A DNA stretch of 64,000 nt, from positions 2,948 to 66,947 of the IMG/VR virus record IMGVR_UViG_3300021979_000001; one strand, given 5' to 3'. The DNA is from a virus (taxonomy: Duplodnaviria; Heunggongvirae; Uroviricota; Caudoviricetes). Under the pieces are notes generated by a model that did no database searches, had not been told where the DNA came from, and worked only from the letters and a program-made list of their open reading frames with translations. Shown here piece after piece: positions 1,336 to 15,930 of this stretch; within the stretch, counting starts at the first letter, position 1, and the number at the start of each line of letters is the position of its first letter. The position numbers were made by a program, and so were the translations under genes.

Positions 1336-1557
1336 TTAATAATAACCATCCTCTGATCCACCCCCAAGCCCATCTCCATCACTATCCCCATCCCCATACC
1401 CATAGCCATCTCCATCCCCATAACCATGACCATCGCCATCCCCATAACCATAACCATCCCCAGACCCATAACCCAACACCGTTCCACAATCATGCCCATG
1501 CGTCTCGTCATTGGTTATTAATGGTATCGACGAATATAAAATATAAATTATAACCAT
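1336..1557 (-). CDS. Gly-X repeat peptide minigene
   Basis: Uses Met4 of the track ORF; leader MVIIYILYSSIPLITNDETHG; 73 aa. Confidence 0.6.
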   Translation of the reverse strand: MVIIYILYSSIPLITNDETHGHDCGTVLGYGSGDGYGYGDGDGHGYGDGDGYGYGDGDSDGDGLGGGSEDGYY

Positions 1558-1577
1558 AACTGGCAATCGTTTATCCT

Positions 1578-1847
1578 TTAATCATAACCCGCGCCATTCC
1601 CATGACCATTACCAATACCATGCCCACCGCCATAGCCACCACGCCCATTCCCTAAACCATGCCCATCACTATCCCCATAGCCAAACCCATTCCCATAATA
1701 TGAGACATAACCAGAACCAAAACCATTTCCAGAACCAGAACCATCACCATTCCCAATACCATCACCATTCCCCAAGCCATCACTATCATCATCGCCATCA
1801 TTGTATGAACTGGAATTGATATAATTTAATTTTATGGATATATTCAT
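1578..1847 (-). CDS. Gly-X repeat peptide minigene
   Basis: Leader MNISIKLNYINSSSYNDGDDD; 89 aa; tail GAGYD. Confidence 0.65.
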   Translation of the reverse strand: MNISIKLNYINSSSYNDGDDDSDGLGNGDGIGNGDGSGSGNGFGSGYVSYYGNGFGYGDSDGHGLGNGRGGYGGGHGIGNGHGNGAGYD

Positions 1848-1878
1848 AATTCACGCACCTGGTGAAAAATAAGTTGAA

Positions 1879-2190
<312 letters not shown>

Positions 2191-2220
2191 TAGATGTCGC
2201 TCCGGTAAAAATAAGTTAAA

Positions 2221-2442
2221 TCATTTATAACCATAACCATAACCATCGCCAGAACCATCTCCATTCCTCTCCCCAGAACCATCACCATGACCATCACCAT
2301 AACCAATACCAGAACCATTCCCATAGCCATGACTATAACCAGTCCCATGCACCGAACCATCCGCAAAACCATGACCAAACCCATATGTCTCGTCATTGGT
2401 TATTAATGGTATCGAATAATATAAAATATAAATTGTAACCAT
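2221..2442 (-). CDS. Gly-X repeat peptide minigene
   Basis: Uses Met10 of the track ORF; leader MVTIYILYYSIPLITNDETYG; 73 aa. Confidence 0.65.
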   Translation of the reverse strand: MVTIYILYYSIPLITNDETYGFGHGFADGSVHGTGYSHGYGNGSGIGYGDGHGDGSGERNGDGSGDGYGYGYK

Positions 2443-2622
2443 AACTGATAATCTTTCTTTTTTAATCATAACAATCCCAGCCCCAAAACCATGACCGGAA
2501 CTATCATTATAAACAATACCGGAACCAGAATCATAATCATAATCATAATCACAACCAGAGCCATCATAGCGTGACCAGGATTTGATATAATTTAATTTTA
2601 TTTTATAGAGATAATCAGGATA
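2443..2622 (-). pseudogene. Decayed Gly-X minigene lacking a start codon
   Basis: The leader remnant LYKIKLNYIKSWSRYDG has no ATG, and the frame reads through into the next gene. Confidence 0.4.
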
Positions 2623-2675
2623 TGTTGCTCCGGTAAAAACTGAATAAATTATATTATAATTTAATTATTGCTTTA

Positions 2676-2903
2676 TTAGTAAAACTCCGATCCAGAACCA
2701 TGGCCCTTTCCATATTTCTTACCATATCCAGAACCAGAACCATAATCATACCCACACCCTTCACCATCGGCAGAACCATCGCGATTGCCATCCCCAGTGC
2801 CATACTCATTCCCATTGCCATGTCCATAGCTATATCCATATCCATGAACGGTGTCATGATCAGATATATTGATGTAAAATGACTGGGTTATGGATGATTT
2901 CAT
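2676..2903 (-). CDS. Gly-X repeat peptide minigene
   Basis: ATG after a TTTTACAGGTATGACC box; leader MKSSITQSFYINISDHDTVHG; 75 aa; tail GSGSEFY. Confidence 0.65.
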   Translation of the reverse strand: MKSSITQSFYINISDHDTVHGYGYSYGHGNGNEYGTGDGNRDGSADGEGCGYDYGSGSGYGKKYGKGHGSGSEFY

Positions 2904-2959
2904 GAATGGGTCATACCTGTAAAATGAATTATTCATAATGTAATCCAATTGTTGCATCA

Positions 2960-3163
2960 TTAGCTATGATCACGGCCATAACCATGCCCATCCCCATAAC
3001 CATCACCATCAACATGACCACTCGCATAGCCACGACCATAACCAGAATCAAGACCATCACCATAACCGAAATCACGACCAGAACCAGAACCATTCCCATA
3101 GCCATATGTCTCGTGATTGGTTATTAATGGTATCACATAATATAACTCATATATTGTAACCAT
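2960..3163 (-). CDS. Gly-X repeat peptide minigene
   Basis: Leader MVTIYELYYVIPLITNHETYG; 67 aa; tail GRDHS. Confidence 0.65.
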   Translation of the reverse strand: MVTIYELYYVIPLITNHETYGYGNGSGSGRDFGYGDGLDSGYGRGYASGHVDGDGYGDGHGYGRDHS

Positions 3164-3183
3164 AACGGATGATCTTTCTTTTT

Positions 3184-3381
3184 TTAATTATAGTCCGCGC
3201 CATTCTCATGACCATCACCGCAACCATCACCATAAATATGACCATAACCATGACCATAACCATATCCATGACCATCACCATGACCGAAACCACGACCAGA
3301 ACCAGAACCATTCCCATAGCCATATGTCTCGTGATTGGTTATTAATGGTATCACATAATATAACTCATATATTGTAACCAT
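3184..3381 (-). CDS. Gly-X repeat peptide minigene
   Basis: Leader MVTIYELYYVIPLITNHETYG. Three additional in-frame ATGs at 3393, 3405 and 3417 come from a 12-nt tandem repeat. Confidence 0.6.
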   Translation of the reverse strand: MVTIYELYYVIPLITNHETYGYGNGSGSGRGFGHGDGHGYGYGHGYGHIYGDGCGDGHENGADYN

Positions 3382-3420
3382 ACCTGTAACCATACCTGTA
3401 ACCATACCTGTAACCATACC
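3373..3420. repeat. 12-nt tandem repeat x4 (tgtaaccatacc), each unit carrying a start codon
   Basis: Four perfect units. On the minus strand they read ATGGTTACAGGT x3 followed by ATGGTTACAATA. Confidence 0.85.
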
Positions 3421-3437
3421 TGGTAACCTTTTGTTCG

Positions 3438-3641
3438 TTAATCATAACCCGCGCCATAGCCATGACCATTTCCATTCCCAAGCCCATTACCACTCCCAAG
3501 CCCTTTTCCAAAACAATAACCATCACTATCCCCATAGCCATCCCCATGACCATTCCCATGATTTGAACCATTCCCATAGCCATATGTCTCGTGATTGGTT
3601 ATTAATTGTATCGAATAATATAATTTATAAATTGTAACCAT
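3438..3641 (-). CDS. Gly-X repeat peptide minigene
   Basis: Leader MVTIYKLYYSIQLITNHETYG; 67 aa; tail GAGYD. Confidence 0.65.
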   Translation of the reverse strand: MVTIYKLYYSIQLITNHETYGYGNGSNHGNGHGDGYGDSDGYCFGKGLGSGNGLGNGNGHGYGAGYD

Positions 3642-3661
3642 AACTGGTAACCTTTTGTTTT

Positions 3662-3754
3662 TTAATCATAATCCGCGCCATGACCATTTCCATGGCCTGA
3701 ATTCTCATAGATTGCCCAGGATTTGATATAATTTAATTTTATGGATATATTCAT
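3662..3754 (-). CDS. Short Gly-X minigene (30 aa)
   Basis: Hand-translated as MNISIKLNYIKSWAIYENSGHGNGHGADYD. It falls below the ORF-track cutoff. Confidence 0.4.
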   Translation of the reverse strand: MNISIKLNYIKSWAIYENSGHGNGHGADYD

Positions 3755-3810
3755 AATTCACGCACCGGTAAAAACTGAATCACTTATATTATAATTCAAT
3801 TATTGATTGA

Positions 3811-4068
3811 TTAGTAAAACTCCGATCCAGAACCATGACCCTTTCCATATTTCTTACCATATCCAGAACCAAAACCATGTCCATAACCACAACCCTTGTC
3901 GGAACCGGAACCATTGCCATCATCGTATCCATCCCCAAAACCAGAACCAAAACCATCGCCATGACCATAACCATTTCCAGAACCATAACTGGAACCATAA
4001 CCAGAACCATCAAGTCCATTTCCTGGAAGATCGGATTTGTGATAATGTAACGTTATGGATATATTCAT
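3811..4068 (-). CDS. Gly-X repeat peptide minigene
   Basis: Uses Met20 of the track ORF; leader MNISITLHYHKSDLPGNG; 85 aa; tail GSGSEFY. Confidence 0.6.
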   Translation of the reverse strand: MNISITLHYHKSDLPGNGLDGSGYGSSYGSGNGYGHGDGFGSGFGDGYDDGNGSGSDKGCGYGHGFGSGYGKKYGKGHGSGSEFY

Positions 4069-4127
4069 GGTATGCCACCCCCGGTAAAACAAAGTATTCA
4101 TATTATAATTCACGTATTGCATCATTA

Positions 4128-4280
4128 TTAAAAACCATGACCCTTGTCAGAACTATAACCACAGCCATTATAATATATGCCATCACCATAATCAGAACCC
4201 CTTCCCATTCCCGAACCATAATTAGAATCATGTTCGGTCAGATCAGGATTTAGTTGACTTAATTTTATGGATGTATTCAT
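4128..4280 (-). CDS. Gly-X repeat peptide minigene
   Basis: Uses Met17 of the track ORF; leader MNTSIKLSQLNPDLTEHD; 50 aa. Confidence 0.5.
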   Translation of the reverse strand: MNTSIKLSQLNPDLTEHDSNYGSGMGRGSDYGDGIYYNGCGYSSDKGHGF

Positions 4281-4336
4281 AATTATTATCACACCAGATA
4301 AAAAATAAATCACTATACTATAATTCAATTATTACA

Positions 4337-4564
4337 TCATTTGCTATGGCTCGAACCATGACCATCCCCATCCCCATACCCAGCACCAGCACCAGCACCA
4401 TCGTCATGACCACTACCATTGCCATAACCATCACCATCCCCAGAACCATAACCAAAACCATAACCATTACCATAATGATAAGCAGAACTATAAGCAGAAC
4501 CATCACCATAAACATTATAGGTTTGATCAGGTTCTTGGAAATAGGTTTCAATTGATGTATTCAT
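4337..4564 (-). CDS. Gly-X repeat peptide minigene
   Basis: Leader MNTSIETYFQEPDQTYNVYG; 75 aa; tail GSSHSK. Confidence 0.65.
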   Translation of the reverse strand: MNTSIETYFQEPDQTYNVYGDGSAYSSAYHYGNGYGFGYGSGDGDGYGNGSGHDDGAGAGAGYGDGDGHGSSHSK

Positions 4565-4606
4565 AAGTAGCACACCAGGTAAAAACGAATTATTTATATT
4601 ATAGCA

Positions 4607-4882
4607 TCATTTGCTATGGCTCGCACCATTACCAAAACCATAACATGCTCCATGACCACTACCATGACCACGACCATTGCCATAACCATGACCATTGCCA
4701 TAACCATAACCATGACCATAACCATCCCCACAACCAGAGCCATCCCTAGACCCATCCCCGTCGTCATCCCCATCCCCATCGCTATAACCCTCCCCATCGC
4801 CAGGACCAGAGCCATGACCAAAACCATAAATATTATCGGGTTGATCAGGTTCTTGGAAATAGGTTTCAATCGATGTATTCAT
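4607..4882 (-). CDS. Gly-X repeat peptide minigene
   Basis: Leader MNTSIETYFQEPDQPDNIYG; 91 aa; tail GASHSK. Confidence 0.65.
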   Translation of the reverse strand: MNTSIETYFQEPDQPDNIYGFGHGSGPGDGEGYSDGDGDDDGDGSRDGSGCGDGYGHGYGYGNGHGYGNGRGHGSGHGACYGFGNGASHSK

Positions 4883-4924
4883 AAGTAGCACACCAGGTAA
4901 AAACGAATTATTTATATTATAGCA

Positions 4925-5182
4925 TCATTTGCTATGGCTCGCACCATTACCATCACCATCCCCATCACCATTCCCTCTACCATACTCAATACCAAAACCA
5001 GTCCCAAAACCATGACCATTGCCATAACCATCACCATAACCATCCCCATTACCAGCCCCATCACCATAACCATAACCATAACCATAACCCTCCCCATCGC
5101 CATGACCAGAACCATGTCCATAACCATAAATATTATCGGGTTGATCAGGTTCTTGGAAATATGTTTCAATTGATGTATTCAT
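4925..5182 (-). CDS. Gly-X repeat peptide minigene
   Basis: Leader MNTSIETYFQEPDQPDNIYG; 85 aa; tail GASHSK. Confidence 0.65.
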   Translation of the reverse strand: MNTSIETYFQEPDQPDNIYGYGHGSGHGDGEGYGYGYGYGDGAGNGDGYGDGYGNGHGFGTGFGIEYGRGNGDGDGDGNGASHSK

Positions 5183-5234
5183 AGTAGCACACCAGGTAAA
5201 AATGAATTATTTGTATTATAATTCAAGTATTGCA

Positions 5235-5519
5235 TCATTTTCTAATACCACGATTGCTGCCATATCTTCTGCCATATCCAAACGTATTACTAACCCTAAA
5301 CCCATTACCATTGCCATAACCATCACCAAAACCATGACCATAACCATCTCCCTCCCCATCCCCATCGCCAGAACCATCGGCAGAACCATCGCGATTGCCA
5401 TCCCCATAGCCATCCCCAGAACCATCCCCAGAACCATCCCCAGAACCATCACCATACATAAAATCATCGTTCGTTAGATGGGAATTAACGCAATAATACA
5501 ATTCAATCGAAATATTCAT
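5235..5519 (-). CDS. Gly-X repeat peptide minigene
   Basis: Leader MNISIELYYCVNSHLTNDDFMYG; 94 aa. Confidence 0.65.
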   Translation of the reverse strand: MNISIELYYCVNSHLTNDDFMYGDGSGDGSGDGSGDGYGDGNRDGSADGSGDGDGEGDGYGHGFGDGYGNGNGFRVSNTFGYGRRYGSNRGIRK

Positions 5520-5622
5520 AATTAGCACACCGAGTAAAAATAAGTTAAATCATTTCCAACCACTACCACGACCATGACTAGTAGCCAGAGTTAGAGTCAA
5601 ATCCATATCCATATCCATATCA

Positions 5623-5844
5623 CTATCCATCCCCATCCCCAAACCCATGCGCGGAACCATCCCTATAATCATACCCATAATCATACCCATAATCATACCC
5701 ATACCCAAAACCATACCCATACCCCTCACCATCGGCAGAACCATCGCGATTGCCATCCCCAGAGCCATAGTCATAGTCGTATCCATGATAGGTTTCAGGA
5801 ACATATATATTGATGTAAAACGACTGGTTTATGTATGGTTTCAT
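5623..5844 (-). CDS. Gly-X repeat peptide minigene (truncated relative to paralogs)
   Basis: Leader MKPYINQSFYINIYVPETYHG; 73 aa. TAG TGA is followed by more GY-coding sequence at 5550-5622. Confidence 0.6.
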   Translation of the reverse strand: MKPYINQSFYINIYVPETYHGYDYDYGSGDGNRDGSADGEGYGYGFGYGYDYGYDYGYDYRDGSAHGFGDGDG

Positions 5845-5898
5845 TAATAGGTTACACCTGTAAAAAATAAATCACTATACTATAATTAATTTATTGCA

Positions 5899-6147
5899 TC
5901 ATTTGTTATGGCTCTCACCATTACCAAATCCATAACATGTTCCATTCCCACTACCACGACCACGACCATTGCTATAACCATTACCATTGCCATAGCCATC
6001 ACCAAAACCATGACCATAATCATCTCCCTCCCCATCCCCATCGCCAGAACCATCCCCATCGCCAGGACCAGAGTCATGACCATACATAAAATCATCGTTC
6101 GTTAGATGGGAATTAACACAATAATACAATTCAATCGAAGTATTCAT
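5899..6147 (-). CDS. Gly-X repeat peptide minigene
   Basis: Leader MNTSIELYYCVNSHLTNDDFMYG; 82 aa; tail GESHNK. Confidence 0.65.
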   Translation of the reverse strand: MNTSIELYYCVNSHLTNDDFMYGHDSGPGDGDGSGDGDGEGDDYGHGFGDGYGNGNGYSNGRGRGSGNGTCYGFGNGESHNK

Positions 6148-6177
6148 AATTCGCACACCGGGTAAAAATAAGTTAAA

Positions 6178-6417
6178 TTATCCACACCCATGACCACGAC
6201 CATGACTAGAGCCAGAGTCAGAGCCAAATCCAGAGCCATAGCTATGTCCAACACCAAATCCAAAACCAAACCCACCATGATAGTCAGAACCAGACCCATC
6301 CCCGGAACCATCCCCATCCCCATAACCATGACCATTCCCAGAGCCATATTCGTATCCATGATAGGTTTCAGGAGCATATATATTGATGTAAAATGACTGG
6401 TTTATGTATGGTTTCAT
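6178..6417 (-). CDS. Gly-X repeat peptide minigene
   Basis: Leader MKPYINQSFYINIYAPETYHG; 79 aa; tail GRGHGCG. Confidence 0.65.
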   Translation of the reverse strand: MKPYINQSFYINIYAPETYHGYEYGSGNGHGYGDGDGSGDGSGSDYHGGFGFGFGVGHSYGSGFGSDSGSSHGRGHGCG

Positions 6418-6471
6418 TAATAGGTCACATCTGTAAAAAATAAATCACTATACTATAATTCAATTATTGCA

Positions 6472-6780
6472 TCATTTGCTAATACCACGATTGCTGCCAT
6501 ATCCAAAACCTGCTCCATTACCACTACCATGACCACGGCCATTATCATAACCACGGCCATTACCATAACCATGACCAGAACCAATCCCATTACCATCTCC
6601 ATTGCCACCACCATAACCATGCGCAGAACCATCACCATAATCATACCCATACCCCGAACCATCGGCAGAACCATCGCGATTGCCATCCCCAGAGCCATCC
6701 CCAGAACCATCACCATACATAAAATCATCGTTCGTTAGATGGGAATTAACGCAATAATACGGTTCAATCGAAGTATTCAT
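6472..6780 (-). CDS. Gly-X repeat peptide minigene
   Basis: Leader MNTSIEPYYCVNSHLTNDDFMYG; 102 aa. Confidence 0.65.
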   Translation of the reverse strand: MNTSIEPYYCVNSHLTNDDFMYGDGSGDGSGDGNRDGSADGSGYGYDYGDGSAHGYGGGNGDGNGIGSGHGYGNGRGYDNGRGHGSGNGAGFGYGSNRGISK

Positions 6781-6810
6781 AATTAGCATACCGGGTAAAA
6801 ATAAGTTAAA

Positions 6811-7074
6811 TTATTCACACCCATGACCACGACCATAACCATAACCATAACTATCCTCAAACCCATTCCCATTCCCAAGCCCTCTCCCAAAACCATGACC
6901 TTCACCATTCCCCGAACCATACCCATTCCCAGAACCATCGCCATCGCCACCACTATGACCATCACCAGACCCATCCCCATAACCATGACCATCCCCAGAG
7001 CCATAGTCGTATCCATGATAGGTTTCAGGAATATATATATTGATGTAAAACGATTGGTTTATGTATGGTTTCAT
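6811..7074 (-). CDS. Gly-X repeat peptide minigene
   Basis: Leader MKPYINQSFYINIYIPETYHG; 87 aa; tail GRGHGCE. Confidence 0.65.
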   Translation of the reverse strand: MKPYINQSFYINIYIPETYHGYDYGSGDGHGYGDGSGDGHSGGDGDGSGNGYGSGNGEGHGFGRGLGNGNGFEDSYGYGYGRGHGCE

Positions 7075-7127
7075 TAATAGGTTACACCTGTAAAAAATAA
7101 ATCACTTACTATAATTAATTTATTGCA

Positions 7128-7382
7128 TCATTTGTTATGGCTCGCACCATTACCAAATCCATAACATGCTCCATTACCACTACCACGACCACGACCATTG
7201 CTATAACCATCACCATCACCATCGCCATCACCAAACCCATGACCATAACCATCCCCAGAGCCATCCCCATCGCCAAAACCATCACCATACCCGTCATCAT
7301 CACCATAACCATGACCTGATGTATAATAGATTTCATGATCAGATGGATTGATACCAAAATACTGACTTATGTATGGTTTCAT
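7128..7382 (-). CDS. Gly-X repeat peptide minigene
   Basis: Leader MKPYISQYFGINPSDHEIYYTSG; 84 aa; tail GASHNK. Confidence 0.65.
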   Translation of the reverse strand: MKPYISQYFGINPSDHEIYYTSGHGYGDDDGYGDGFGDGDGSGDGYGHGFGDGDGDGDGYSNGRGRGSGNGACYGFGNGASHNK

Positions 7383-7436
7383 TAATAGGTCACACATGTA
7401 AAAAATAAATCACTATACTATAATTCATTTATTGCA

Positions 7437-7691
7437 TCATTTGTTATGGCTCTCACCATTACCAAATCCATAACATGCTCCATTACCACTACCATGACTA
7501 CCACCAGAAACATAACCATAACCATGACCATAACCATCCCCACAACCAGAGCCATCCCTATCCCCATCCCCAAAACCATACCCATAACCATCACCATACC
7601 CGTCATCATCACCATAACCATGACCTGATGTATAATAGATTTCATGATCAGATGGATTGATACCAAAATACTGACTTATGTATGGTTTCAT
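7437..7691 (-). CDS. Gly-X repeat peptide minigene
   Basis: Leader MKPYISQYFGINPSDHEIYYTSG; 84 aa; tail GESHNK. Confidence 0.65.
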   Translation of the reverse strand: MKPYISQYFGINPSDHEIYYTSGHGYGDDDGYGDGYGYGFGDGDRDGSGCGDGYGHGYGYVSGGSHGSGNGACYGFGNGESHNK

Positions 7692-7763
7692 TAATAGGTC
7701 ACTCATGTAAAAAATAAATCACTCATAATATTATTCAATTGTTGCGTTATTAATGAAAAATCA

Positions 7764-7883
7764 TCAATGACCCTTTCTATCCGCATCACCATAACCATTG
7801 CCATAGTTTGAGTCAAAACCAGAAACATTTTCAGATATATCATGATCATGGTAGTGGTAATACAATTCAATCGATATGTTCAT
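7764..7883 (-). CDS. Short Gly-X minigene (39 aa)
   Basis: Hand-translated as MNISIELYYHYHDHDISENVSGFDSNYGNGYGDADRKGH. Confidence 0.4.
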   Translation of the reverse strand: MNISIELYYHYHDHDISENVSGFDSNYGNGYGDADRKGH

Positions 7884-7943
7884 AATAGGCCACTGCCAAT
7901 AATATAATAAAATAAACCATTACTATTTCAATTGGTGGAACCA

Positions 7944-8144
7944 CTAACCTTCGCGACCATGACCTCTGCCTCGGCCCCTTCCAGTTTCATAACCAGGCCC
8001 ATCCCCGGAGCCAAGACCATACTCAAATCCAAGCCAGTTACCATCACCATCGCCATAACCATTGCCCTGCTCGCCACCACTCACGAAATCCACGTTCGTT
8101 AGATGGGAATTAACGCAATAATACAATTCAATTGATGTATTCAT
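7944..8144 (-). CDS. Gly-X repeat peptide minigene
   Basis: Leader MNTSIELYYCVNSHLTNVDFVSG; 66 aa. Confidence 0.6.
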   Translation of the reverse strand: MNTSIELYYCVNSHLTNVDFVSGGEQGNGYGDGDGNWLGFEYGLGSGDGPGYETGRGRGRGHGREG

Positions 8145-8201
8145 AATTAACACACCAGGTAAAAAACAAAGTATTCATCTTATAATTCAATTATTGCCTC
8201 A

Positions 8202-8459
8202 TTAACCATACCCGGAGCCATTTACATACCCATCCCCATATCCCTCGCCAATCCCAAATCCACCCCCCGCACCATCCCCTTCCAAATAGCCGTTTCCATA
8301 ACCGTAACCATAGCCATCGTCATACCTAATAATACCTGAACCATTACCAGAACCATCACCATAACCAGCCTCATAACCATACGTAAAACCGAAACCGGAA
8401 TCATAATCATATTTGTGACAATCTGTTTCGTGATAATTTAATTTTATAGATGAACTCAT
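8202..8459 (-). CDS. Gly-X repeat peptide minigene
   Basis: Uses Met7 of the track ORF; leader MSSSIKLNYHETDCHKYDYDSG; 85 aa. Confidence 0.6.
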   Translation of the reverse strand: MSSSIKLNYHETDCHKYDYDSGFGFTYGYEAGYGDGSGNGSGIIRYDDGYGYGYGNGYLEGDGAGGGFGIGEGYGDGYVNGSGYG

Positions 8460-8520
8460 GATAGGACATACATGCAAAAATAAACCATTACTAATTCAAT
8501 TGTTGTGCTATTAACTACGA

Positions 8521-8763
8521 TCATGCACCCCCCTGACTATATCCATCGCCATACCCATAACCAAAAACTTTACCATCATTATCCCCATACCCATTACCAT
8601 AGCCAGAGCCATCCGCATCATCATCATCATCATTGGTAATATACCAAGCATTATTAATATTATATCCCGAACCATGACCATAACCAAAACCATCCCCTTC
8701 TATATAACCAGTTTTATTATTTTCAGATTCGATATAAAAAGATTGTTTTATCGATACTGGCAT
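8521..8763 (-). CDS. Gly-X repeat peptide minigene
   Basis: Uses Met6 of the track ORF; leader MPVSIKQSFYIESENNKTG; 80 aa. Confidence 0.55.
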   Translation of the reverse strand: MPVSIKQSFYIESENNKTGYIEGDGFGYGHGSGYNINNAWYITNDDDDDADGSGYGNGYGDNDGKVFGYGYGDGYSQGGA

Positions 8764-8813
8764 GCTAAATCCCATCAAGTAATAAAAAAGGTGTTACGTA
8801 ACTACGATTATAT

Positions 8814-8918
8814 TTAAAACACTGCGCCATCGCCATTACCATGACCATCACCGAGTGCATAATCGGGTTTATGATAATCTGTATTAATGTAAAACAACTG
8901 GTTTATGTATATGGTCAT
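8814..8918 (-). CDS. Short Gly-X minigene (34 aa)
   Basis: Hand-translated as MTIYINQLFYINTDYHKPDYALGDGHGNGDGAVF. Confidence 0.4.
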   Translation of the reverse strand: MTIYINQLFYINTDYHKPDYALGDGHGNGDGAVF

Positions 8919-8957
8919 GAATAGGCCACACCTGTGAAAATCAAACCACTAATATTA

Positions 8958-9248
8958 TTATGCACTTAAACCTTCCCCATAAATATTGCTATAACTATTG
9001 CCATTCCAGTTACCGGAACCATCGCCATAACCATCCCCATAACTATTGCAATTCCTGTTACCGTGACCATCTCCCTCACCATAACCATAACCATTCCCAA
9101 AATCATCTCCATCACTCTCCCCAGAGTCATCCCCATAACCGGAACAATAACCATTCACATATCCATAACCAAGACCATGACCATGACCATGATCGGTTTC
9201 ATGATCATCTGCATGTATGCAAAAATACTGATTTATGTATGGGGTCAT
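8958..9248 (-). CDS. Gly-X repeat peptide minigene
   Basis: Leader MTPYINQYFCIHADDHETDHG; 96 aa. Confidence 0.65.
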   Translation of the reverse strand: MTPYINQYFCIHADDHETDHGHGHGLGYGYVNGYCSGYGDDSGESDGDDFGNGYGYGEGDGHGNRNCNSYGDGYGDGSGNWNGNSYSNIYGEGLSA

Positions 9249-9299
9249 AATTGGTCACACCTATAAAAATAAACACTAAACGTTTTTTTGATGGTATCA

Positions 9300-9575
9300 T
9301 TAGTTATAATTACAGCCATCACTATCTCCATAACCAAAACCATAACCAAAACCATCACCATCACCATAACCATAACCATGACTAACACCAGAGCCAGAGC
9401 CATCCCCATCCCCATCTCCCTGCCCATCGCCATCGCCATCGCCCTGTCCATTACCATAACCATGACCAAAACCATTCCCATTCCCATAACCATGACCCGA
9501 GCCATTACCATGACCGGAACCGGTTTCATGATCATCTGCATGTATGCAAAAATACTGATTTATGGGTAGATTCAT
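9300..9575 (-). CDS. Gly-X repeat peptide minigene
   Basis: GGTG box; leader MNLPINQYFCIHADDHETGSG; 91 aa; tail DGCNYN. Confidence 0.65.
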   Translation of the reverse strand: MNLPINQYFCIHADDHETGSGHGNGSGHGYGNGNGFGHGYGNGQGDGDGDGQGDGDGDGSGSGVSHGYGYGDGDGFGYGFGYGDSDGCNYN

Positions 9576-9627
9576 GATCGGTCACACCTGTAAAAATAAA
9601 CACTAAACTTTTTTTTGATGGGTATCA

Positions 9628-9882
9628 TTAGTTATAATTACAGCCATCACCATCTCCATAACCAAAACCATCACCATAACCACCGCCATGACTAACGCCA
9701 GAGCCAGAGCCATCACCATCTTCATAACCAAAACCATAACCAAAACCATCACCATAACTATAACCATGATCCCCATCACCAAAACCATTCCCATAACCAT
9801 GACCCGAGCCATTACCATGACCGGAACCGGTTTCATGATCATCTGCATGTATGCAAAAATACTGATTTATGGGTAGATTCAT
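9628..9882 (-). CDS. Gly-X repeat peptide minigene
   Basis: Leader identical to 9300..9575; 84 aa; tail DGCNYN. Confidence 0.65.
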   Translation of the reverse strand: MNLPINQYFCIHADDHETGSGHGNGSGHGYGNGFGDGDHGYSYGDGFGYGFGYEDGDGSGSGVSHGGGYGDGFGYGDGDGCNYN

Positions 9883-9937
9883 GATCGGTCACGCCTGTAA
9901 AACGAATTATTAATATTGTAATTCAAGTGTTGCATCA

Positions 9938-10153
9938 TTAGTTATAATTACAGCCATAGCCAGCACCATTGCCATTGCCATTGCCATTGCCGTAACCGTC
10001 GCCAGCCCCATCGCCATGACTAACACCAGAGCCAGAGCCATCACCATCCCCATCTCCCTGCCCATCGCCATCACCCGAGCCATTACCATGACCGGAACCG
10101 GTTTCATGATCATCTGCATGTATGCAAAAATACTGATTTATGGGTAGATTCAT
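9938..10153 (-). CDS. Gly-X repeat peptide minigene
   Basis: Leader identical to 9300..9575; 71 aa; tail YGCNYN. Confidence 0.65.
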   Translation of the reverse strand: MNLPINQYFCIHADDHETGSGHGNGSGDGDGQGDGDGDGSGSGVSHGDGAGDGYGNGNGNGNGAGYGCNYN

Positions 10154-10202
10154 GATCGGTCACACCTGTAAAAATAAACCACTAAAATTTTTATTTACTG
10201 TA

Positions 10203-10457
10203 TCATTGGTTATGATCGCGACCATCCCCTTCCCCAAAACCATCCCCATCTCCATTCCCCAAGCCATTGCTTCGACCATAACCATCACCATGACCAGAAC
10301 CAGCATTAATCCCATAACCAGACCCACACCCGGAGCCATAACCCTCCCCGTAACCATAGCCATACGCATTACCATGACCATGACCATAACCGAAACCATA
10401 CTCGGTTTTATGATAATTTGTATTAATGCAAAACATTTGGTTTATATATGTGGTCAT
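10203..10457 (-). CDS. Gly-X repeat peptide minigene
   Basis: Uses Met20 of the track ORF; leader MTTYINQMFCINTNYHKTEYG; 84 aa; tail GRDHNQ. Confidence 0.6.
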   Translation of the reverse strand: MTTYINQMFCINTNYHKTEYGFGYGHGHGNAYGYGYGEGYGSGCGSGYGINAGSGHGDGYGRSNGLGNGDGDGFGEGDGRDHNQ

Positions 10458-10513
10458 GAATAGGTCACGCCTGTAAAACGAATTATTAATATTATAATTC
10501 AAGTGTTGCATCA

Positions 10514-10771
10514 TTAGTTATAATTACAGCCATAGCCAGCACCATTGCCATTGCCATTGCCGTAACCGTCGCCATCCCCATAGCCATTGCCAAAACCATA
10601 ACCATCCCCATAATCATACCCATAACCGGAGCCACTGCCAAATCCATAACCATCCCCATCATTATCCCCATAACCGGAGCCATTACCATGACCATACTCA
10701 TTATCATGACCATACGTGTTTTCATGATAATATGTATTGATGTAAAATGACTGGGTTATGGGTGGGTTCAT
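10514..10771 (-). CDS. Gly-X repeat peptide minigene
   Basis: Leader MNPPITQSFYINTYYHENTYG; 85 aa; tail YGCNYN. Confidence 0.65.
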   Translation of the reverse strand: MNPPITQSFYINTYYHENTYGHDNEYGHGNGSGYGDNDGDGYGFGSGSGYGYDYGDGYGFGNGYGDGDGYGNGNGNGAGYGCNYN

Positions 10772-10819
10772 GATCGGTCACGCCTGTAGAAATAAACCAC
10801 TAAATTTTTATTGACTGTA

Positions 10820-11086
10820 TCATTGGCTATGATCGCGACCATTCCCATAACCATTCCCAGAGCCATAATTATTTCCATTCCCAGAGCAAGAGCCATACCC
10901 AGAGCCATAATTATTCCCGTAACCATTACCATGCCCCGTAGCATAACCGAAACCATCGCTCGAACCATCTCCAAAACCATCCCCAGTGCCATACTCATTC
11001 CCATTGCCATGTCCATAGCCATATCCATGAACGGTGTCATGATCAGATGTATTGATGTAAAATGACTGGGTTATGGATGATTTCAT
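10820..11086 (-). CDS. Gly-X repeat peptide minigene
   Basis: Uses Met20 of the track ORF; leader MKSSITQSFYINTSDHDTVHG; 88 aa; tail GRDHSQ. Confidence 0.6.
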   Translation of the reverse strand: MKSSITQSFYINTSDHDTVHGYGYGHGNGNEYGTGDGFGDGSSDGFGYATGHGNGYGNNYGSGYGSCSGNGNNYGSGNGYGNGRDHSQ

Positions 11087-11142
11087 GAATGGGTCACACC
11101 TGTAAAATGAATTATTCATAATGTAATCCAATTGTTGCATCA

Positions 11143-11388
11143 TTAGCTATGATCACGGCCATAACCATGACCACTCTCATAGCCATAACCATCAACATGA
11201 CCACTCGCATAGCCACGACCATAACCAGAATCAAGACCATCACCATGACCATAACCACGACCAGAGCCAAGACCAGAGCCACGACCAGAGCCAAGACCAG
11301 AGCCAAGACCATAACCATTACCATGACCGGAACCGGTTTTATGTGTATCGGCATTGATGTAAAACGACTGGTCTATAGATTGATTCAT
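11143..11388 (-). CDS. Gly-X repeat peptide minigene
   Basis: Leader MNQSIDQSFYINADTHKTGSG; 81 aa; tail GRDHS. Confidence 0.65.
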   Translation of the reverse strand: MNQSIDQSFYINADTHKTGSGHGNGYGLGSGLGSGRGSGLGSGRGYGHGDGLDSGYGRGYASGHVDGYGYESGHGYGRDHS

Positions 11389-11446
11389 GAAACGGTCTTA
11401 CCTGTAAAAATGAAATCACTTATATTGTAATTCAATTGTTGCATTA

Positions 11447-11698
11447 TTAGCTATTATCATGACCATTCCCATTGCCATAACCATCCCCCGCACTATCCCC
11501 ATAGCTGCCGCCATAACCATAACCACGACCATTACCATAACCATAGCCGCCGCCATAACCATAACCATGATCGGTGCCAACACCATAACCAGAACCATAG
11601 CCATGCTCATTGCCATGACCATAATCAACGCCGGGTCCATTATCGATTTCATGATCATGTGTGTTGATGTAAAACGACTGGTGTATGGATTGGTTCAT
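11447..11698 (-). CDS. Gly-X repeat peptide minigene
   Basis: Leader MNQSIHQSFYINTHDHEIDNG; 83 aa; tail GHDNS. Confidence 0.65.
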   Translation of the reverse strand: MNQSIHQSFYINTHDHEIDNGPGVDYGHGNEHGYGSGYGVGTDHGYGYGGGYGYGNGRGYGYGGSYGDSAGDGYGNGNGHDNS

Positions 11699-11756
11699 GA
11701 AACGGTCTTACCTGTAAAAATGAAATCACTTATATTGTAATTCAATTGTTGCATTA

Positions 11757-12026
11757 TTAGCTATTATCATGACCATTCCCATTCCCATTCCCATTGCCAT
11801 CCCCATCCCCCGCCCCCGCACTATCCCCATAGCCGCCGCCATAACCATAACAATGCGCGTCCCCAAATCCAGAGCCAAGACCATAACCATAACCATGATT
11901 GGTGCCAACACCATAACCAGAACCATAGCCATGCTCATTGCCATGACCATAATCAACGCCGGGTCCATTATCGATTTCATGATCATGTGTGTTGATGTAA
12001 AACGACTGGTGTATGGATTGGTTCAT
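11757..12026 (-). CDS. Gly-X repeat peptide minigene
   Basis: About 150 nt of 5'UTR, leader and early core are identical to 11447..11698; 89 aa. Confidence 0.65.
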   Translation of the reverse strand: MNQSIHQSFYINTHDHEIDNGPGVDYGHGNEHGYGSGYGVGTNHGYGYGLGSGFGDAHCYGYGGGYGDSAGAGDGDGNGNGNGNGHDNS

Positions 12027-12084
12027 GAAACGGTCTTACCTGTAAAAACGAAACCACTTATGTCGTAATTCAATTGTTGCATTA

Positions 12085-12204
12085 TTAGCTATTATCATGA
12101 CCATTCCCATTGCCATGCCCATTACAATAACCAAAACAATATTCATTGTCATTTTGGTTTAGATTAGTATTGATGTAAAAAATGTTGGATTATGGTGTGT
12201 TCAC
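12085..12204 (-). pseudogene. Decayed Gly-X minigene
   Basis: GTG replaces the ATG and there is an in-frame TAA at codon 5 (GTG AAC ACA CCA TAA). The remainder reads SNIFYINTNLNQ...GHGNGNGHDNS. Confidence 0.5.
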
Positions 12205-12270
12205 AGTAATTCGTTCAATCATGTATAAAATAACTAAATTATGCCTATTATAACTTAAATTGTTGCATCA

Positions 12271-12513
12271 TTAACCATACCCCGATCCATTACTATGATC
12301 TGTCAGATAACCATCACCATCACCAAACGCGGAACCATCACCACTTCCATCGCCATGGCCGTAACCATGACCACGTGCAGACCCAAACCGATCACCTAGA
12401 CTATACTTTTTATCATCATTATACTCATTGCCAGCACCATAACCAAAACCATAACCAGAAAACTTTTCGGATTGATCATATTGGGTATAATTTAATTTTA
12501 TGGATGTATTCAT
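12271..12513 (-). CDS. Gly-X repeat peptide minigene
   Basis: Leader MNTSIKLNYTQYDQSEKFSG; 80 aa. Confidence 0.6.
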   Translation of the reverse strand: MNTSIKLNYTQYDQSEKFSGYGFGYGAGNEYNDDKKYSLGDRFGSARGHGYGHGDGSGDGSAFGDGDGYLTDHSNGSGYG

Positions 12514-12616
12514 GATATGTTCTAGTAAATAATGAACGAAAAAATTAATTTACATTTCAATGTCAGTATTATCCATCACCATCACATATTCATGACCTGG
12601 CCTGTTTGTTGTATCA

Positions 12617-12907
12617 TTAATTATGATCACTGCCATTCCCATTACCATAACCAAAACCATGACCATTCCCAAGCCCTCTCCCAAAACCATGACCTTCACC
12701 ATTCCCCGAACCATACCCATTCCCAATACCATCGCCATCGCCATCACTATGACCATCACCAGACCCATCGCCAAAACCATAACCATTACTATCGCCATAA
12801 CCCAAAACGCCCCTAATACCACCACCATGCTTAGATGTTAATCTTTTGTAATATACATGTTTGGAAAGATCAGATGTATGGTAATTTAATTTTATGGATA
12901 GTTTCAT
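12617..12907 (-). CDS. Gly-X repeat peptide minigene
   Basis: Leader MKLSIKLNYHTSDLSKH; 96 aa; tail GSDHN. Confidence 0.6.
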   Translation of the reverse strand: MKLSIKLNYHTSDLSKHVYYKRLTSKHGGGIRGVLGYGDSNGYGFGDGSGDGHSDGDGDGIGNGYGSGNGEGHGFGRGLGNGHGFGYGNGNGSDHN

Positions 12908-12969
12908 GATAGGACCATCCCTGGTAATAAAAAATCACTAATATTTCAATTGGCAGTATCAATTAATCA

Positions 12970-13185
12970 TTAACTACAGTCATGCCCTGGACTCTCACCA
13001 TAACCATAACCATTCCCAACACCATTGCCATCCCCATCACCATAACCAGAACCGAAACCGTCCCCCTCATTATAACCATTCCCATTACCAGAACCGAAAC
13101 CATCGCCATTAGCAAAAATAGAACCATAAAGATTTCTCTTTAGGTCCGCATTGTATAAATAAAACAAATTAATTGGTGTATTCAT
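12970..13185 (-). CDS. Gly-X repeat peptide minigene
   Basis: Leader MNTPINLFYLYNADLKRN; 71 aa. Confidence 0.6.
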   Translation of the reverse strand: MNTPINLFYLYNADLKRNLYGSIFANGDGFGSGNGNGYNEGDGFGSGYGDGDGNGVGNGYGYGESPGHDCS

Positions 13186-13243
13186 GATCTGCTTCCTAGG
13201 TAATAAAATTGCTCATTCATGTTATACTTCAATTAATGCATCA

Positions 13244-13465
13244 TTAGTCAAAAAAACTAACGGAACCATTCCCATAGCCATAACTAGAACCATTGTCCAA
13301 ACCCTCGTTATAATCTTTTCCAGAACTATAACCATTTCCATAATCATAACCAAACCCGGCCCCATAGCCAAAACACCTGTAACTGGTATCTGCACCGGAA
13401 CCGAAACCAGAATCATTTATGGATAGATCAGACTCTTGATGATTTAATTTTACGAATATAGTCAT
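13244..13465 (-). CDS. Gly-X repeat peptide minigene
   Basis: Leader MTIFVKLNHQESDLSINDSG; 73 aa. Confidence 0.55.
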   Translation of the reverse strand: MTIFVKLNHQESDLSINDSGFGSGADTSYRCFGYGAGFGYDYGNGYSSGKDYNEGLDNGSSYGYGNGSVSFFD

Positions 13466-13517
13466 TATATGCCATATAAGGTAATAAGTTTAATAAATCA
13501 TATTATAATTGGTTGCA

Positions 13518-13745
13518 TCAATCACCATGACCCTTACCATCTCCAAAACCATACCCGAAACTATAACCAAACACCGAACCAATACCCTCGCCAACACCAA
13601 TACGGAAATCATTACCATCCCCATTCCCATAACCAAAACCATAACTTTCCCCAGTATAATAACCCGAACTCGGTTCATTACCCAACCACCCATCGGGTGT
13701 TAGGTCGGTGTTATAACAATAATACATTTTTATTGGCGTATTCAT
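13518..13745 (-). CDS. Gly-X repeat peptide minigene
   Basis: Uses Met8 of the track ORF; leader MNTPIKMYYCYNTDLTPDG; 75 aa. Confidence 0.55.
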   Translation of the reverse strand: MNTPIKMYYCYNTDLTPDGWLGNEPSSGYYTGESYGFGYGNGDGNDFRIGVGEGIGSVFGYSFGYGFGDGKGHGD

Positions 13746-13812
13746 AATTATTTTACCGAGTGACAAAAATAAGTTAACTAAATTGCATTACAACTTAGTG
13801 GTATCATTAATA

Positions 13813-14043
13813 TTACGTATCCCCATAATCATAACCAAATCCAGAACCCTTACCATAACCATTTCCCTGCTCGCCACCATACCCCGCACCAACCCCAGAA
13901 CCGTAACTATCTCCATTATTATAACCAGCACTGGCCCCCATCCCATAACTCAAACCATTACCAAAACCCAAACCAGACCCATCCCAGGAGACATCTTTTT
14001 TTAGATAGGGTTCGTGATAACACCAGTCGATAGCGGTATTCAT
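13813..14043 (-). CDS. Gly-X repeat peptide minigene
   Basis: Uses Met4 of the track ORF; leader MNTAIDWCYHEPYLKKD; 76 aa. Confidence 0.55.
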   Translation of the reverse strand: MNTAIDWCYHEPYLKKDVSWDGSGLGFGNGLSYGMGASAGYNNGDSYGSGVGAGYGGEQGNGYGKGSGFGYDYGDT

Positions 14044-14091
14044 AATTATCATCTCGGTAAAAAATGAAAGTTCAAATCACATATATTTCAA

Positions 14092-14287
14092 TTATTCGGA
14101 ATTACACCCCAGAGTGCCATACCTAAACCCAAAACCAAAACCATATTCATTCTCACCACCATATCCCTGACCGGAACACGAGCCATAACTATGACCATGA
14201 CTATGACCGGAACTATCGGTATGATCCGGTTCATCACCTGTTTCATTAGTGTGGTCATCGACAAAACAATAACATGTTTATATTCAT
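14092..14287 (-). pseudogene. Frameshifted Gly-X minigene
   Basis: ATG AAT ATA AAC, then a 1-nt shift before CYCFVDDHTNETGDEPD...GY core. The length of 196 nt is not a multiple of 3. Confidence 0.45.
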
Positions 14288-14313
14288 GTTATAATAAGAG
14301 CCATTTGAATAAT

Positions 14314-14550
14314 TTACGATATACGTCCATGACCATGACCATTGCCCGCCCCAAAACCATAATTATAACCATGCTCATTACCGGCGCTATCCCCAGCACC
14401 ATCCCCCATGCCATAACCTGCATGATACTCATTCCCATGACCCAACCCCGGACTATGATCATCCCCATAATCATCCCCGGCACCGGAACCAGAATTATCA
14501 GTTTTTAGATCGGGGTTATCGCAGTAATGAAACATAATCGATGGTTTCAT
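14314..14550 (-). CDS. Gly-X repeat peptide minigene
   Basis: Uses Met15 of the track ORF; leader MKPSIMFHYCDNPDLKTDNSG; 78 aa. Confidence 0.6.
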   Translation of the reverse strand: MKPSIMFHYCDNPDLKTDNSGSGAGDDYGDDHSPGLGHGNEYHAGYGMGDGAGDSAGNEHGYNYGFGAGNGHGHGRIS

Positions 14551-14581
14551 AATTGTTTCACCAAGTAAAAAATAAGTTAAA

Positions 14582-14824
14582 TTATTCACCATCTACGTTG
14601 CCATGACCATTGCCCGTCCCAAAACCATAACTATAACCATACCCATCATCCACACCATACCAGGCACCATCACCATTGCCATAACCCACGTCATATTGAT
14701 TCCCATAACCTTTCCCCGGACTATAATCATCCCCAGGATCATACCCGGCACATGAACCAGAGCCAGAACCATCGGTTATTGGATCGGGTTCATAGCAATA
14801 ATTAAATGCAATCGGTAGATTCAT
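14582..14824 (-). CDS. Gly-X repeat peptide minigene
   Basis: Leader MNLPIAFNYCYEPDPITDGSG; 80 aa. Confidence 0.6.
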   Translation of the reverse strand: MNLPIAFNYCYEPDPITDGSGSGSCAGYDPGDDYSPGKGYGNQYDVGYGNGDGAWYGVDDGYGYSYGFGTGNGHGNVDGE

Positions 14825-14877
14825 AATTGGTTCACCAATGAGAAAAAATAAGTTAAATCATTCACATTATATTTCAA

Positions 14878-15183
14878 TTATTCATAATTACGCCCAGTGC
14901 CATGCCCATCCCCATACCCAAAACCATCACCATCACTAGACACATAACCATCACCATCAACATAACCAATACCATTGCCAGCCCCATCACCATCACCATC
15001 AACATAACCAATACCATTGCCAGCCCCATCACCCATGCCATAACCTTCGTCATAATCATTCCCATAACCCTGCCCCGGATTATGATAATCCCCAGAATCA
15101 TAACCGGCACCGGAAACGGAACCATCACCATCACTTACTAGATCGGGGTTATTGCAATAATTAAATGTAATTGATGGTTTCAT
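14878..15183 (-). CDS. Gly-X repeat peptide minigene
   Basis: Leader MKPSITFNYCNNPDLVSDGDG; 101 aa. Confidence 0.6.
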   Translation of the reverse strand: MKPSITFNYCNNPDLVSDGDGSVSGAGYDSGDYHNPGQGYGNDYDEGYGMGDGAGNGIGYVDGDGDGAGNGIGYVDGDGYVSSDGDGFGYGDGHGTGRNYE

Positions 15184-15243
15184 AATTATTTCACTAAATG
15201 GTTAAACCACGTCAAATCGCACAGTTAGATTACAGGTATTGCA

Positions 15244-15444
15244 TCATTCACCCCTATTCCCATCACCACGACCATAACCCTCACCAGAAACAAAACCTTT
15301 ACCTGAACCATTCCCAAATCCATACACATTACCATAAGATATACCAAAACCATCCTCGGTGCCATGATCAGAGCCATGACCAAAACCATAAACATTGTTG
15401 GGTATATCATGGTTTTGGAAATATGATTCAATCGATATATTCAT
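15244..15444 (-). CDS. Gly-X repeat peptide minigene
   Basis: Uses Met6 of the track ORF; leader MNISIESYFQNHDIPNNVYG; 66 aa. Confidence 0.6.
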   Translation of the reverse strand: MNISIESYFQNHDIPNNVYGFGHGSDHGTEDGFGISYGNVYGFGNGSGKGFVSGEGYGRGDGNRGE

Positions 15445-15512
15445 AATTAAATCATTCATTTATTACATCATCAACTGTTACCAGGTCCATTGTCATACCC
15501 GCTTATCGGCAT

Positions 15513-15770
15513 CTATTCAGGTTCACCACTTGATCCATCCCAGTTTCCACGACTCGAACCATTACCAAATCCAAAAGCCGAACAATAACCATTTTTGTGA
15601 ATAAAAATATGTTCATACGTTTTGCCATCACCATAACCATAACCATAACCAGAACCATATCCATAACCATTACCAAATCCAAAAACCGAACCATTATCTG
15701 AAACAATTTCCGAAACAATTTCATTTGGGCTGCTATCATCGCAATATAATAAATTTATCAGTTCATACAT
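15513..15770 (-). CDS. Gly-X repeat peptide minigene (divergent)
   Basis: Leader MYELINLLYCDDSSPNE; 85 aa. Confidence 0.5.
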   Translation of the reverse strand: MYELINLLYCDDSSPNEIVSEIVSDNGSVFGFGNGYGYGSGYGYGYGDGKTYEHIFIHKNGYCSAFGFGNGSSRGNWDGSSGEPE

Positions 15771-15772
15771 AA

Positions 15773-15930
15773 TTAATACTGACCATCCATCGAACCCTCA
15801 CCAAACCCATGACCATATCCATAAATGTCACCAACATCATCACATTCGCCGCCCCATTTGTATGACAGTAGTTCGTTAGGACGTCATAATTAAAATAATA
15901 AAACCCGATTAATATATTAATGATACGGAC
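15773..15930 (-). pseudogene. Possible decayed Gly-X minigene
   Basis: A tail frame WGGECDDVGDIYGYGHGFGEGSMDGQY follows a stop. The leader-like INILIGFYYFNYD is in another frame and there is no ATG. Confidence 0.3.

Follow-up and report, generated by a model that had tools for sequence, protein, structure and literature searches.

A tandem family of small Gly-X proteins in a jumbo phage, probably shaped by recombination within its coding repeats

Introduction

For a packaging-limited virus it would be unusual to give over more than 21 kb, with more than 60 genes, to a single orphan family of mini-proteins, and a locus of this kind raises the question of how it came about and what its products might do. 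Here we consider such a locus, a tandem array of small glycine-rich open reading frames (ORFs) in a 64,000-nucleotide (nt) stretch of Caudoviricetes DNA (positions 2,948 to 66,947 of IMG/VR record IMGVR_UViG_3300021979_000001), referred to as the window throughout. Each ORF joins a short N-terminal module to a tail of Gly-X repeats. A first-pass annotation had singled out repeated cassettes at 5235–12204, described there as conserved “leaders” ahead of indel-rich “cores”; this region is only the middle part of an array that occupies window positions 1–18594.

Tandem multigene families that evolve by recombination in low-complexity coding repeats are known in bacteria and eukaryotes. All parts taken together, we lean toward reading the array as a tandem multigene family that is specific to this lineage and encodes small, acidic, disordered proteins. 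Its evolutionary part, tandem amplification combined with recombination and slippage in the repeats, we consider very probable, and its functional part, an N-terminal docking module with a tail acting in bulk, we put forward tentatively. The array offers an example from nature of a phage whose proteins diversify through recombination.

Organization of the array

A listing of minus-strand ORFs, combined with a scan for glycine content, yielded about 55 small ORFs of 62–103 amino acids (aa) arranged in tandem over positions 1..18594 (-), each with the N-terminal module and a (Gly-X)n tail, together with truncated and fused copies. The array leaves the window at its left end, where ENA scaffold L052 matches window positions 1401..1 with 99.86% identity and then continues with 2.3 kb of further array genes. 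With the at least 2.3 kb of like genes that this scaffold adds, the array comprises at least 21 kb and at least 63 units. Its source is a jumbo phage of ~457 kb (an identical radical S-adenosylmethionine (SAM) protein is recorded on a 457,165-bp contig), of whose genome the array makes up about 4–5%. The guanine-cytosine skew is about −0.4 across 1–18000 and ends at ~18 kb.

The N-terminal module is about 18 residues long and follows the pattern M-[NK]-x-[SP]-I-x-x-x-[YF]-[CY]-[IV]-N-x-D. Across 51 aligned units, M1 is invariant (51/51), tyrosine or phenylalanine occupies position 9 in 49 and isoleucine position 5 in 43, the latter encoded by ATA, ATT and ATC; Y/F9 is followed by C/Y10, I/V11 and N12, often then by D-L. 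The tail is a (Gly-X)n stretch of 36–80 residues, in which X is chiefly Tyr, Asp, Asn, Ser, His or Phe and 73% of the residues are in strict G-X register. Its composition (G 40%, D 11%, Y 11%, S 9%, N 7%, H 5%, F 4%) makes it acidic, with a mean net charge of about −5.6. Neighboring X residues show no order preference in the tails, where we did not find any ordered motif. All four Gly codons are in use in the units, which suggests that the constraint acts on the protein. AlphaFold2, run with an alignment of the 51 paralogs, predicted the tail to be disordered, with a predicted local distance difference test (pLDDT) score of ~31, as against 72 for the first 10 residues.

Most stop codons are directly followed by a conserved intergenic box, AATGATGCAAYAATTGAATTATAATAT, which emerged from a comparison of upstream regions and for which 11422..11447 (-) may serve as an example. 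It has 16 copies where 0.01 would be expected, each of them within the array and on its minus strand, and 20 of the 25 window matches to its core, TTGAATTATAATAT, lie there as well. About 30 nt downstream of the box a T-rich tract is found, then ACAGGTGTGAC with a Shine-Dalgarno-like AGGTG, 9–10 nt ahead of the ATG. The two-gene cassettes described below have the box before their first gene only, and the second gene follows after 30 nt; in the MVTIYNLYY subfamily (48–3641) the spacers are 20 nt long and lack the box. The box contains a TATAAT sequence and is a putative promoter.

The array falls into young families at 48–12026 and singletons with diverged heads at 12271–18594, forming an age gradient. 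In the older, proximal part, 12271..18594 (-), the units are single-copy with a best head identity of 0.49–0.75, and the N-terminal motif is kept. Among the young families, the two-gene unit that the first-pass annotation had counted three times is indeed present in three copies, at 5208..7101 (-) (repeat families D8 and D9), each consisting of a TATAAT box, an MKPYINQSFY gene, a 30-nt spacer and a MNTSIELYYCVNSH gene. With periods of 628 and 633 nt, the MKPYINQSFY genes (5623–5844, 6178–6417 and 6811–7074, all (-)) alternate with the MN(I/T)SIE(L/P)YYCVNSH genes (5235–5519, 5899–6147 and 6472–6780, all (-)). When the cassettes are aligned, their heads are near-identical and their cores full of indels and replacements. 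Next to them, two MKPYISQYFGIN genes (7128–7382 and 7437–7691) lie within 7059..7745 (-), a higher-order repeat of 309 nt with 89% matches, and have an exact head run of 117 nt in common (7277–7393 and 7586–7702).

Alignment also bore out three MNLPINQYFCIHADDHETGSG genes at 9300–9575, 9628–9882 and 9938–10153 (-). These constitute the MNLPINQYFCIH group, whose heads match exactly over 108 nt (9478/9785) and 107 nt (9495/10073), and have relatives at 8958–9248 (MTPYI) and at 10203–10457 and 10514–10771 (MNPPI), so that the group with its relatives covers 8958..10771 (-). The MNQSI.QSFYIN units at 11143..12204 (-) were found as first described, three of them intact (11143–11388, 11447–11698 and 11757–12026) and a fourth, 12036–12204, decayed to a remnant in which the N-terminal coding region is reduced to its SFYIN piece and, apart from this, only the 3' tail is left. 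They account for the second higher-order period given by Tandem Repeats Finder, 328 nt. Exact-match analysis placed the longest exact repeat of the array in this family, at 11573..11720 and 11901..12048 (-). For this pair, the units starting at 11447 and 11757, an identity of about 150 nt had been reported that was to include the upstream box. The length is right, the exact run being 148 nt, from 22 nt ahead of the ATG (−22) to codon 42, but the box lies outside it: the TATAAT-containing box has 4 mismatches in 36 nt, and the run takes in the ribosome-binding segment instead.

About 10% of the units are truncated, fused or decayed. Besides the remnant at 12036–12204, these are fused or frameshifted units and truncated ones (30–39 aa) dispersed through the array at 329–766, 2221–2664, 3662–3754, 7764–7883 and 8814–8918. 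Two further units depart from the usual anatomy: in that at 1879–2190, a poly-Asp run (DDDDDDDDDDDD) separates the N-terminal module from the Gly-X tail, and the MVTIYELYY gene at 3184–3441 has the motif GGTATGGTTACA four times in tandem upstream, apparently through slippage within the start region.

Divergence and recombination

Divergence is not uniform across leader, untranslated region and core; as the first-pass annotation had supposed, heads are conserved and distal tails variable. Within families, leader identity is 0.93–1.00 in recent copies and 0.85–0.91 to the outlying members 7944 and 8958, whereas aligned cores are 0.77–0.91 identical and contain many gaps. The exact runs of 107–148 nt in recent copies take in the ribosome-binding region together with the N-terminus and the proximal part of the tail, and the distal tails differ. 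Cores were compared through protein alignments and exact matches, as global nucleotide alignments gave spurious gaps whose lengths were not multiples of 3.

The short periods that Tandem Repeats Finder detected in the cores (6, 12, 18 and so on up to 48 nt) are all multiples of 6 nt, the length of one Gly-X unit; the 9-nt periodicity of collagen-like (G-X-Y)n repeats was not among them. In the youngest pair, slippage is visible: one copy contains three (AATGGG) units where the other contains one, and one of the two tails carries an internal duplication.

The cores are, however, more than indel variants of each other. Best matches were tabulated for heads (−25..+60) and for tails (the final 15 codons and a further 22 nt). 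In this table, unit 5899 joins an MNTSIELYY head to a tail with 97% identity to that of 7437, whose own head is of the MKPYISQYF kind. Likewise, unit 9938 is identical to 9300 in its head and 99% identical to 10514 in its tail, unit 2676 combines a head 98% identical to that of 10820 with a tail 94% identical to that of 3811, and the tails of 2960 and 11143 agree at 91%. Duplicated conserved blocks often consist of a tail, the intergenic region and the next head, and breakpoints therefore lie inside the repeats; one such junction block (repeat family D6) occurs at 2807..3092 and 10990..11275 (-), 8 kb apart, with 92% identity over 286 nt. Exact core segments of at least 30 nt were common to 19 cross-unit pairs, whereas shuffling of the 6-nt units within cores gave an expectation of 0.15. 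The longest of these, 63, 59 and 50 nt, each connect different leader families: the 63-nt module (GNGYGSGNGEGHGFGRGLGN) is found at 6869..6931 and 12663..12725 (-), and the 50-nt module is common to the mid-core of 7437 and unit 4607.

Judged from these alignments, units and two-gene cassettes have clearly been duplicated in tandem, and the cores are evidently mosaics in which heads and tails reassort between families. The earlier proposal of unequal recombination or slippage is thus correct in so far as cassette amplification, recombination and slippage by 6-nt Gly-X units are all seen, and incomplete in so far as it took core diversity for indel variation. In the old, diverged units, I5 and Y/F9 are held with synonymous codon variation, and these positions are therefore under selection at the protein level.

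The mechanism that the sequence very probably shows is amplification of units and two-gene cassettes by tandem duplication, with the (GGN-NNT)n coding repeats providing the substrate for recombination and slippage, and with crossovers or conversion tracts that start and stop within the tails. The outcome is expansion and contraction by 6-nt units, swapping of modules between paralogs and reassortment of heads and tails. Young heads are still near-identical, and old ones are held by selection at positions 1, 5 and 9. As to function, the N-terminal module could be a short docking or targeting motif, and the tail would act via its bulk composition and length, not its exact sequence, which would account for the tolerance of rampant change in tail length and sequence. 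Most likely, the proteins would be abundantly made, host-directed or structural phage accessories and not substrates of the neighboring radical SAM enzyme. The newly defined N-terminal motif offers a candidate handle for a binding partner.

Search for homologs

We searched a profile of 51 array peptides against a word-indexed collection of 5.8 billion protein clusters and, exhaustively, against 1.84 billion representatives. In both searches, every match that included the N-terminal module was a paralog from the same phage. The remaining matches were to unrelated proteins that contain (G-Y/D/N/S)n stretches and in many cases also a DUF7666 domain. A locus search with a single peptide gave 108 pattern matches, none of which was confirmed, and a search of IMG/VR for the intergenic box gave nine single chance matches, none with Gly-X ORFs. 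With megablast, no nucleotide match was obtained in INPHARED phages to the array or to 24 kb of flanking sequence. Pfam, NCBIfam and PHROGs returned nothing informative for the peptides and their neighbors, an Rfam scan of 1–20000 yielded no family, and a literature search on phage Gly-rich peptide arrays and DUF7666 nothing relevant. In the data searched, the family is an orphan confined to this phage.

Metagenomic proteins with (G-Y/D/N/S)n tails, for example those of the DUF7666 (PF24703) family, were the only non-self matches of the profile and have a repeat composition nearly equal to that of the array tails (GYGDGNG...). They differ in being 110–330 aa long, in having unrelated folded domains and in lacking the N-terminal module, and no arrays of them were seen; conversely, the DUF7666 domain, present in the matches P0124 and P0131, is absent from the array peptides. 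The likeness is compositional only. Long (G-Y/D/N/S)n stretches beside folded domains such as DUF7666 were observed in the metagenomic proteins P0124, P0131, P0147, P0167, P0241 and P0264.

Comparison with known repeat families

Among known systems, animal keratin-associated protein clusters and moth chorion clusters are tandem sets of small Gly/Tyr-rich genes that show unequal crossing-over, gene conversion and length polymorphism. These genes encode eukaryotic structural proteins and are not known to have any sequence relationship to the phage family. The mycobacterial PE_PGRS proteins resemble the array in combining a conserved N-terminal module with a Gly-rich repetitive region of variable size in dozens of paralogs, and they vary through recombination and indels in their repeats (PMC7550000, PMC3319526). 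PE_PGRS proteins, however, are built from a PE domain of ~100 aa and GGA/GGN repeats, run to hundreds of residues and are dispersed in a bacterial chromosome, whereas the array has a module of ~18 aa, a Gly-X repeat and proteins of 62–103 aa in a single tandem array in a phage. Scans with Pfam, NCBIfam and PHROG models found no PE domain in the array peptides, and the likeness is best described as analogy, not membership.

Alternative explanations

Several points weigh against our reading of the array as a multigene family of disordered proteins. The function given to them is inferred. The TATAAT box is unsupported as a promoter by a generic promoter and terminator scan, which showed no enrichment, with 97 sigma-70 sites against 91 expected. 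The first-pass annotation had further proposed that the leaders are homogenized. Young heads are near-identical, but this does not distinguish homogenization through gene conversion from recent duplication combined with purifying selection. The architecture of the 51 aligned units, a conserved N-terminal module of ~18 aa ahead of a variable tail, is also that of a peptide precursor family, for which a trans-acting maturase may be encoded elsewhere, in the ~390 kb beyond the 64-kb window. Finally, all data are short-read metagenome assemblies, in which copy numbers and some junctions could be wrong, and contigs of other assemblies stop inside the array, at window positions 7119, 14482, 16386 and 16477.

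These contig ends would be expected if short reads had been mis-joined across repeats, the mosaic structure and the copy numbers being artifacts of assembly. To the left of window position 1, moreover, two assemblies (L052 ~1757–1992 and L054 7120–8101) are identical but for one whole unit, a 71-aa gene in 236 nt bounded by the repeated head; the difference reflects copy-number variation in the population or else a collapse during assembly. At 148 nt, the longest exact repeat comes near typical read length, and the copy number of the youngest units is therefore uncertain. We nevertheless consider an artifact very unlikely: contigs from JGI, ENA and Logan agree with the window at 99.86–100% over 1.4–16 kb without structural difference inside it, exact repeats are at most 117 nt in all but one case, and the mosaic modules of 30–63 nt are embedded in otherwise unique sequence. 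Hardly to be entertained is the notion that the Gly-X frame is not the coding one, and that the array is a non-coding satellite or is translated in the +1 frame into Met/Val-rich hydrophobic peptides. The DNA repeat is a strict 6-nt unit, and the +1 frame is open through the repeats, with ORFs of 60–100 aa, but stops occur in all three frames after each tail, third-position variation of the GGN codons would scramble the +1 frame, and only the Gly-X frame has the conserved ATG, the Shine-Dalgarno-like site at the right distance and the N-terminal motif; it is also the frame picked by the gene predictions of the source records. A neutral or selfish “genomic accordion”, in which one Gly-X gene was amplified, its repeats drift and most copies are individually without function, would fit the tenth or so of units that are truncated, fused or decayed, the unconstrained sequence and length of the tails and the lack of homologs found elsewhere. 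Against it stand more than 50 units with ATG, Shine-Dalgarno-like site, N-terminal motif and open frame, and the old units of 12271–18594 with their I5 and Y/F9 held through synonymous variation; more than 21 kb of useless DNA is also unlikely to last in a packaging-limited phage genome. We therefore regard this explanation as unlikely.

The terms “leader” and “core” of the first-pass annotation point to peptides that are synthesized ribosomally and modified post-translationally (RiPPs). The N-terminal module would then be the leader for a phage maturase, for instance one of two radical SAM/SPASM-like enzymes encoded in the window, and the Gly-X tails would serve as the cores, to be cross-linked or otherwise modified in the manner of triceptides or of Gly-rich repeat modification (GRRM), recombination generating product diversity. 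A radical SAM gene with C-terminal Cys motifs does lie at 21579–22667, 3 kb upstream of the array, with a paralog at 50881–51966, and the weak NCBIfam matches of its product are mostly to peptide or protein maturases; aromatic-Gly-X triplets are abundant in the tails, and AlphaFold2 predicts a short ordered N-terminus on a disordered peptide. Prochlorosins set the precedent of one promiscuous enzyme serving many dispersed precursors (PMC10783134). The evidence, however, speaks against a link between this enzyme and the array. Its family is widespread, with 2377 relatives, many on contigs of 100–576 kb, and Gly-X ORFs were found within 10 kb in none of 46 IMG/VR radical SAM loci, nor beside the closest relative (59% identity). 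The gene belongs to a six-gene module, independent of the array, that is kept in 38–39 of 47 related jumbo-phage loci, where Gly-X genes are absent. It is separated from the array by lineage-specific genes, including two on the opposite strand, and by a terminator-like hairpin at 19174–19203. The enzyme itself has no N-terminal RiPP recognition element (RRE), its CxxxCxxC motif starting at residue 19, and its best NCBIfam matches reach 52 bits against cutoffs of 170–650. On co-occurrence and synteny, we rejected the radical SAM protein of 21579–22667 as the maturase of the array. Pfam scans of 40 window ORFs gave no peptidase, exporter or RRE, the tails show composition only, without ordered motif, and tails of 36–80 residues and free length are atypical for RiPP cores. 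With no linked maturase, protease or exporter found in the 64-kb window, the RiPP vocabulary has no support there, and we consider a RiPP precursor library rather unlikely.

The array was also compared with specific RiPP classes. Precursor families such as prochlorosins and those of Nif11 type resemble the array in having many short paralogs with a conserved N-terminal and a highly variable C-terminal part, but the array has no linked or co-varying maturase, protease or exporter, its N-terminal module is much shorter, and its cores are low-complexity Gly-X sequence without a defined modifiable motif. The GRRM system is cyanobacterial, with precursor and radical SAM enzyme covered by TIGRFAM models; no GRRM model matched when the radical SAM protein and five peptides were compared with NCBIfam, and the only peptide matches were spurious ones to a model for a serine-rich protein. 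Double-glycine-leader bacteriocins and class II microcins are equally poor candidates, as the peptides do not have a GG/GA leader end and the window contains no C39 peptidase or ABC transporter. Triceptide precursors can bear repeated aromatic-X-X motifs, and their maturases are radical SAM/SPASM enzymes (PMC11499958, PMC11851443). In the array, aromatic-Gly-X triplets are frequent by composition, and with class ratios of ~1 the aromatic residues appear to stand in no positional relation to their neighbors. Triceptide (3-CyFE) systems have a dedicated cyclophane synthase, usually with an N-terminal RRE; the local radical SAM protein comes near no maturase cutoff, is not linked to the array and leaves no room for an RRE. 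This case suggests caution in RiPP mining: a conserved leader and a variable core close to a radical SAM gene may be deceptive if that gene is part of a conserved module of a different kind.

An idea that we hold to be speculative and somewhat improbable is that the array forms a self-diversifying phage library, in which one N-terminal address tag brings more than 60 acidic Gly/Tyr/Asp/His tails to a single partner. This partner could be a trans-acting maturase elsewhere, the array then being part of a phage RiPP factory, or it could be a host or virion site, with the tails as decoys, condensate formers or packaged internal peptides. If this were true, recombination in coding repeats would be a built-in generator of diversity in the arms race of phage and host.

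Genomic context

The ORFs flanking the array are orphans. At its head lies a 161-aa ORF (18662..19147, (-)), ahead of which the terminator-like hairpin of 19174–19203, a strong one, is located; it matches only itself among 5.8 billion clusters and has no relatives in IMG/VR or JGI metagenomes. A PDB sequence search with this ORF and a 232-aa neighbor of the array was empty, and for an orphan 151-aa ORF AlphaFold2 gave an unusable model with a pLDDT of 37. Inside the array, a 128-aa Cys-rich, zinc-ribbon-like ORF interrupts the series of units at 17827..18213 (-); it has only weak PHROG matches, and a scan of IMG/VR and JGI metagenomes yielded no relatives.

The six-gene module at 21579–26123 encodes proteins of 218, 300, 79, 246 and 233 aa, with the radical SAM gene as its last member; the 246-aa protein has a DxD-like ‘DADNW’ motif. 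The second radical SAM gene, 50881–51966 (-), adjoins methyltransferase-like and 2-oxoglutarate-Fe(II) oxygenase-like ORFs (weak Pfam matches; window 49500–51966).

Other genes of the window are phage-like. Its DnaB-like helicase shares 52% identity with the counterparts in Sinorhizobium phage Phosso and Agrobacterium phage Atu_ph07, and ~50% with those in PA5oct-like phages. In addition to the two paralogous radical SAM proteins, the window encodes a ribonucleotide reductase with an intein, the anti-CBASS protein Acb1 (52129–52590), an EcoRV-like endonuclease (27034–27771), a K+ channel with an RCK domain (27743–28828) and an Amidoligase_2 protein (57340–58641). The large subunit of the ribonucleotide reductase, at 43934–47092, is spread over two ORFs (579 and 424 aa), each with part of an intein splicing domain, and its intein may thus be split or interrupted.

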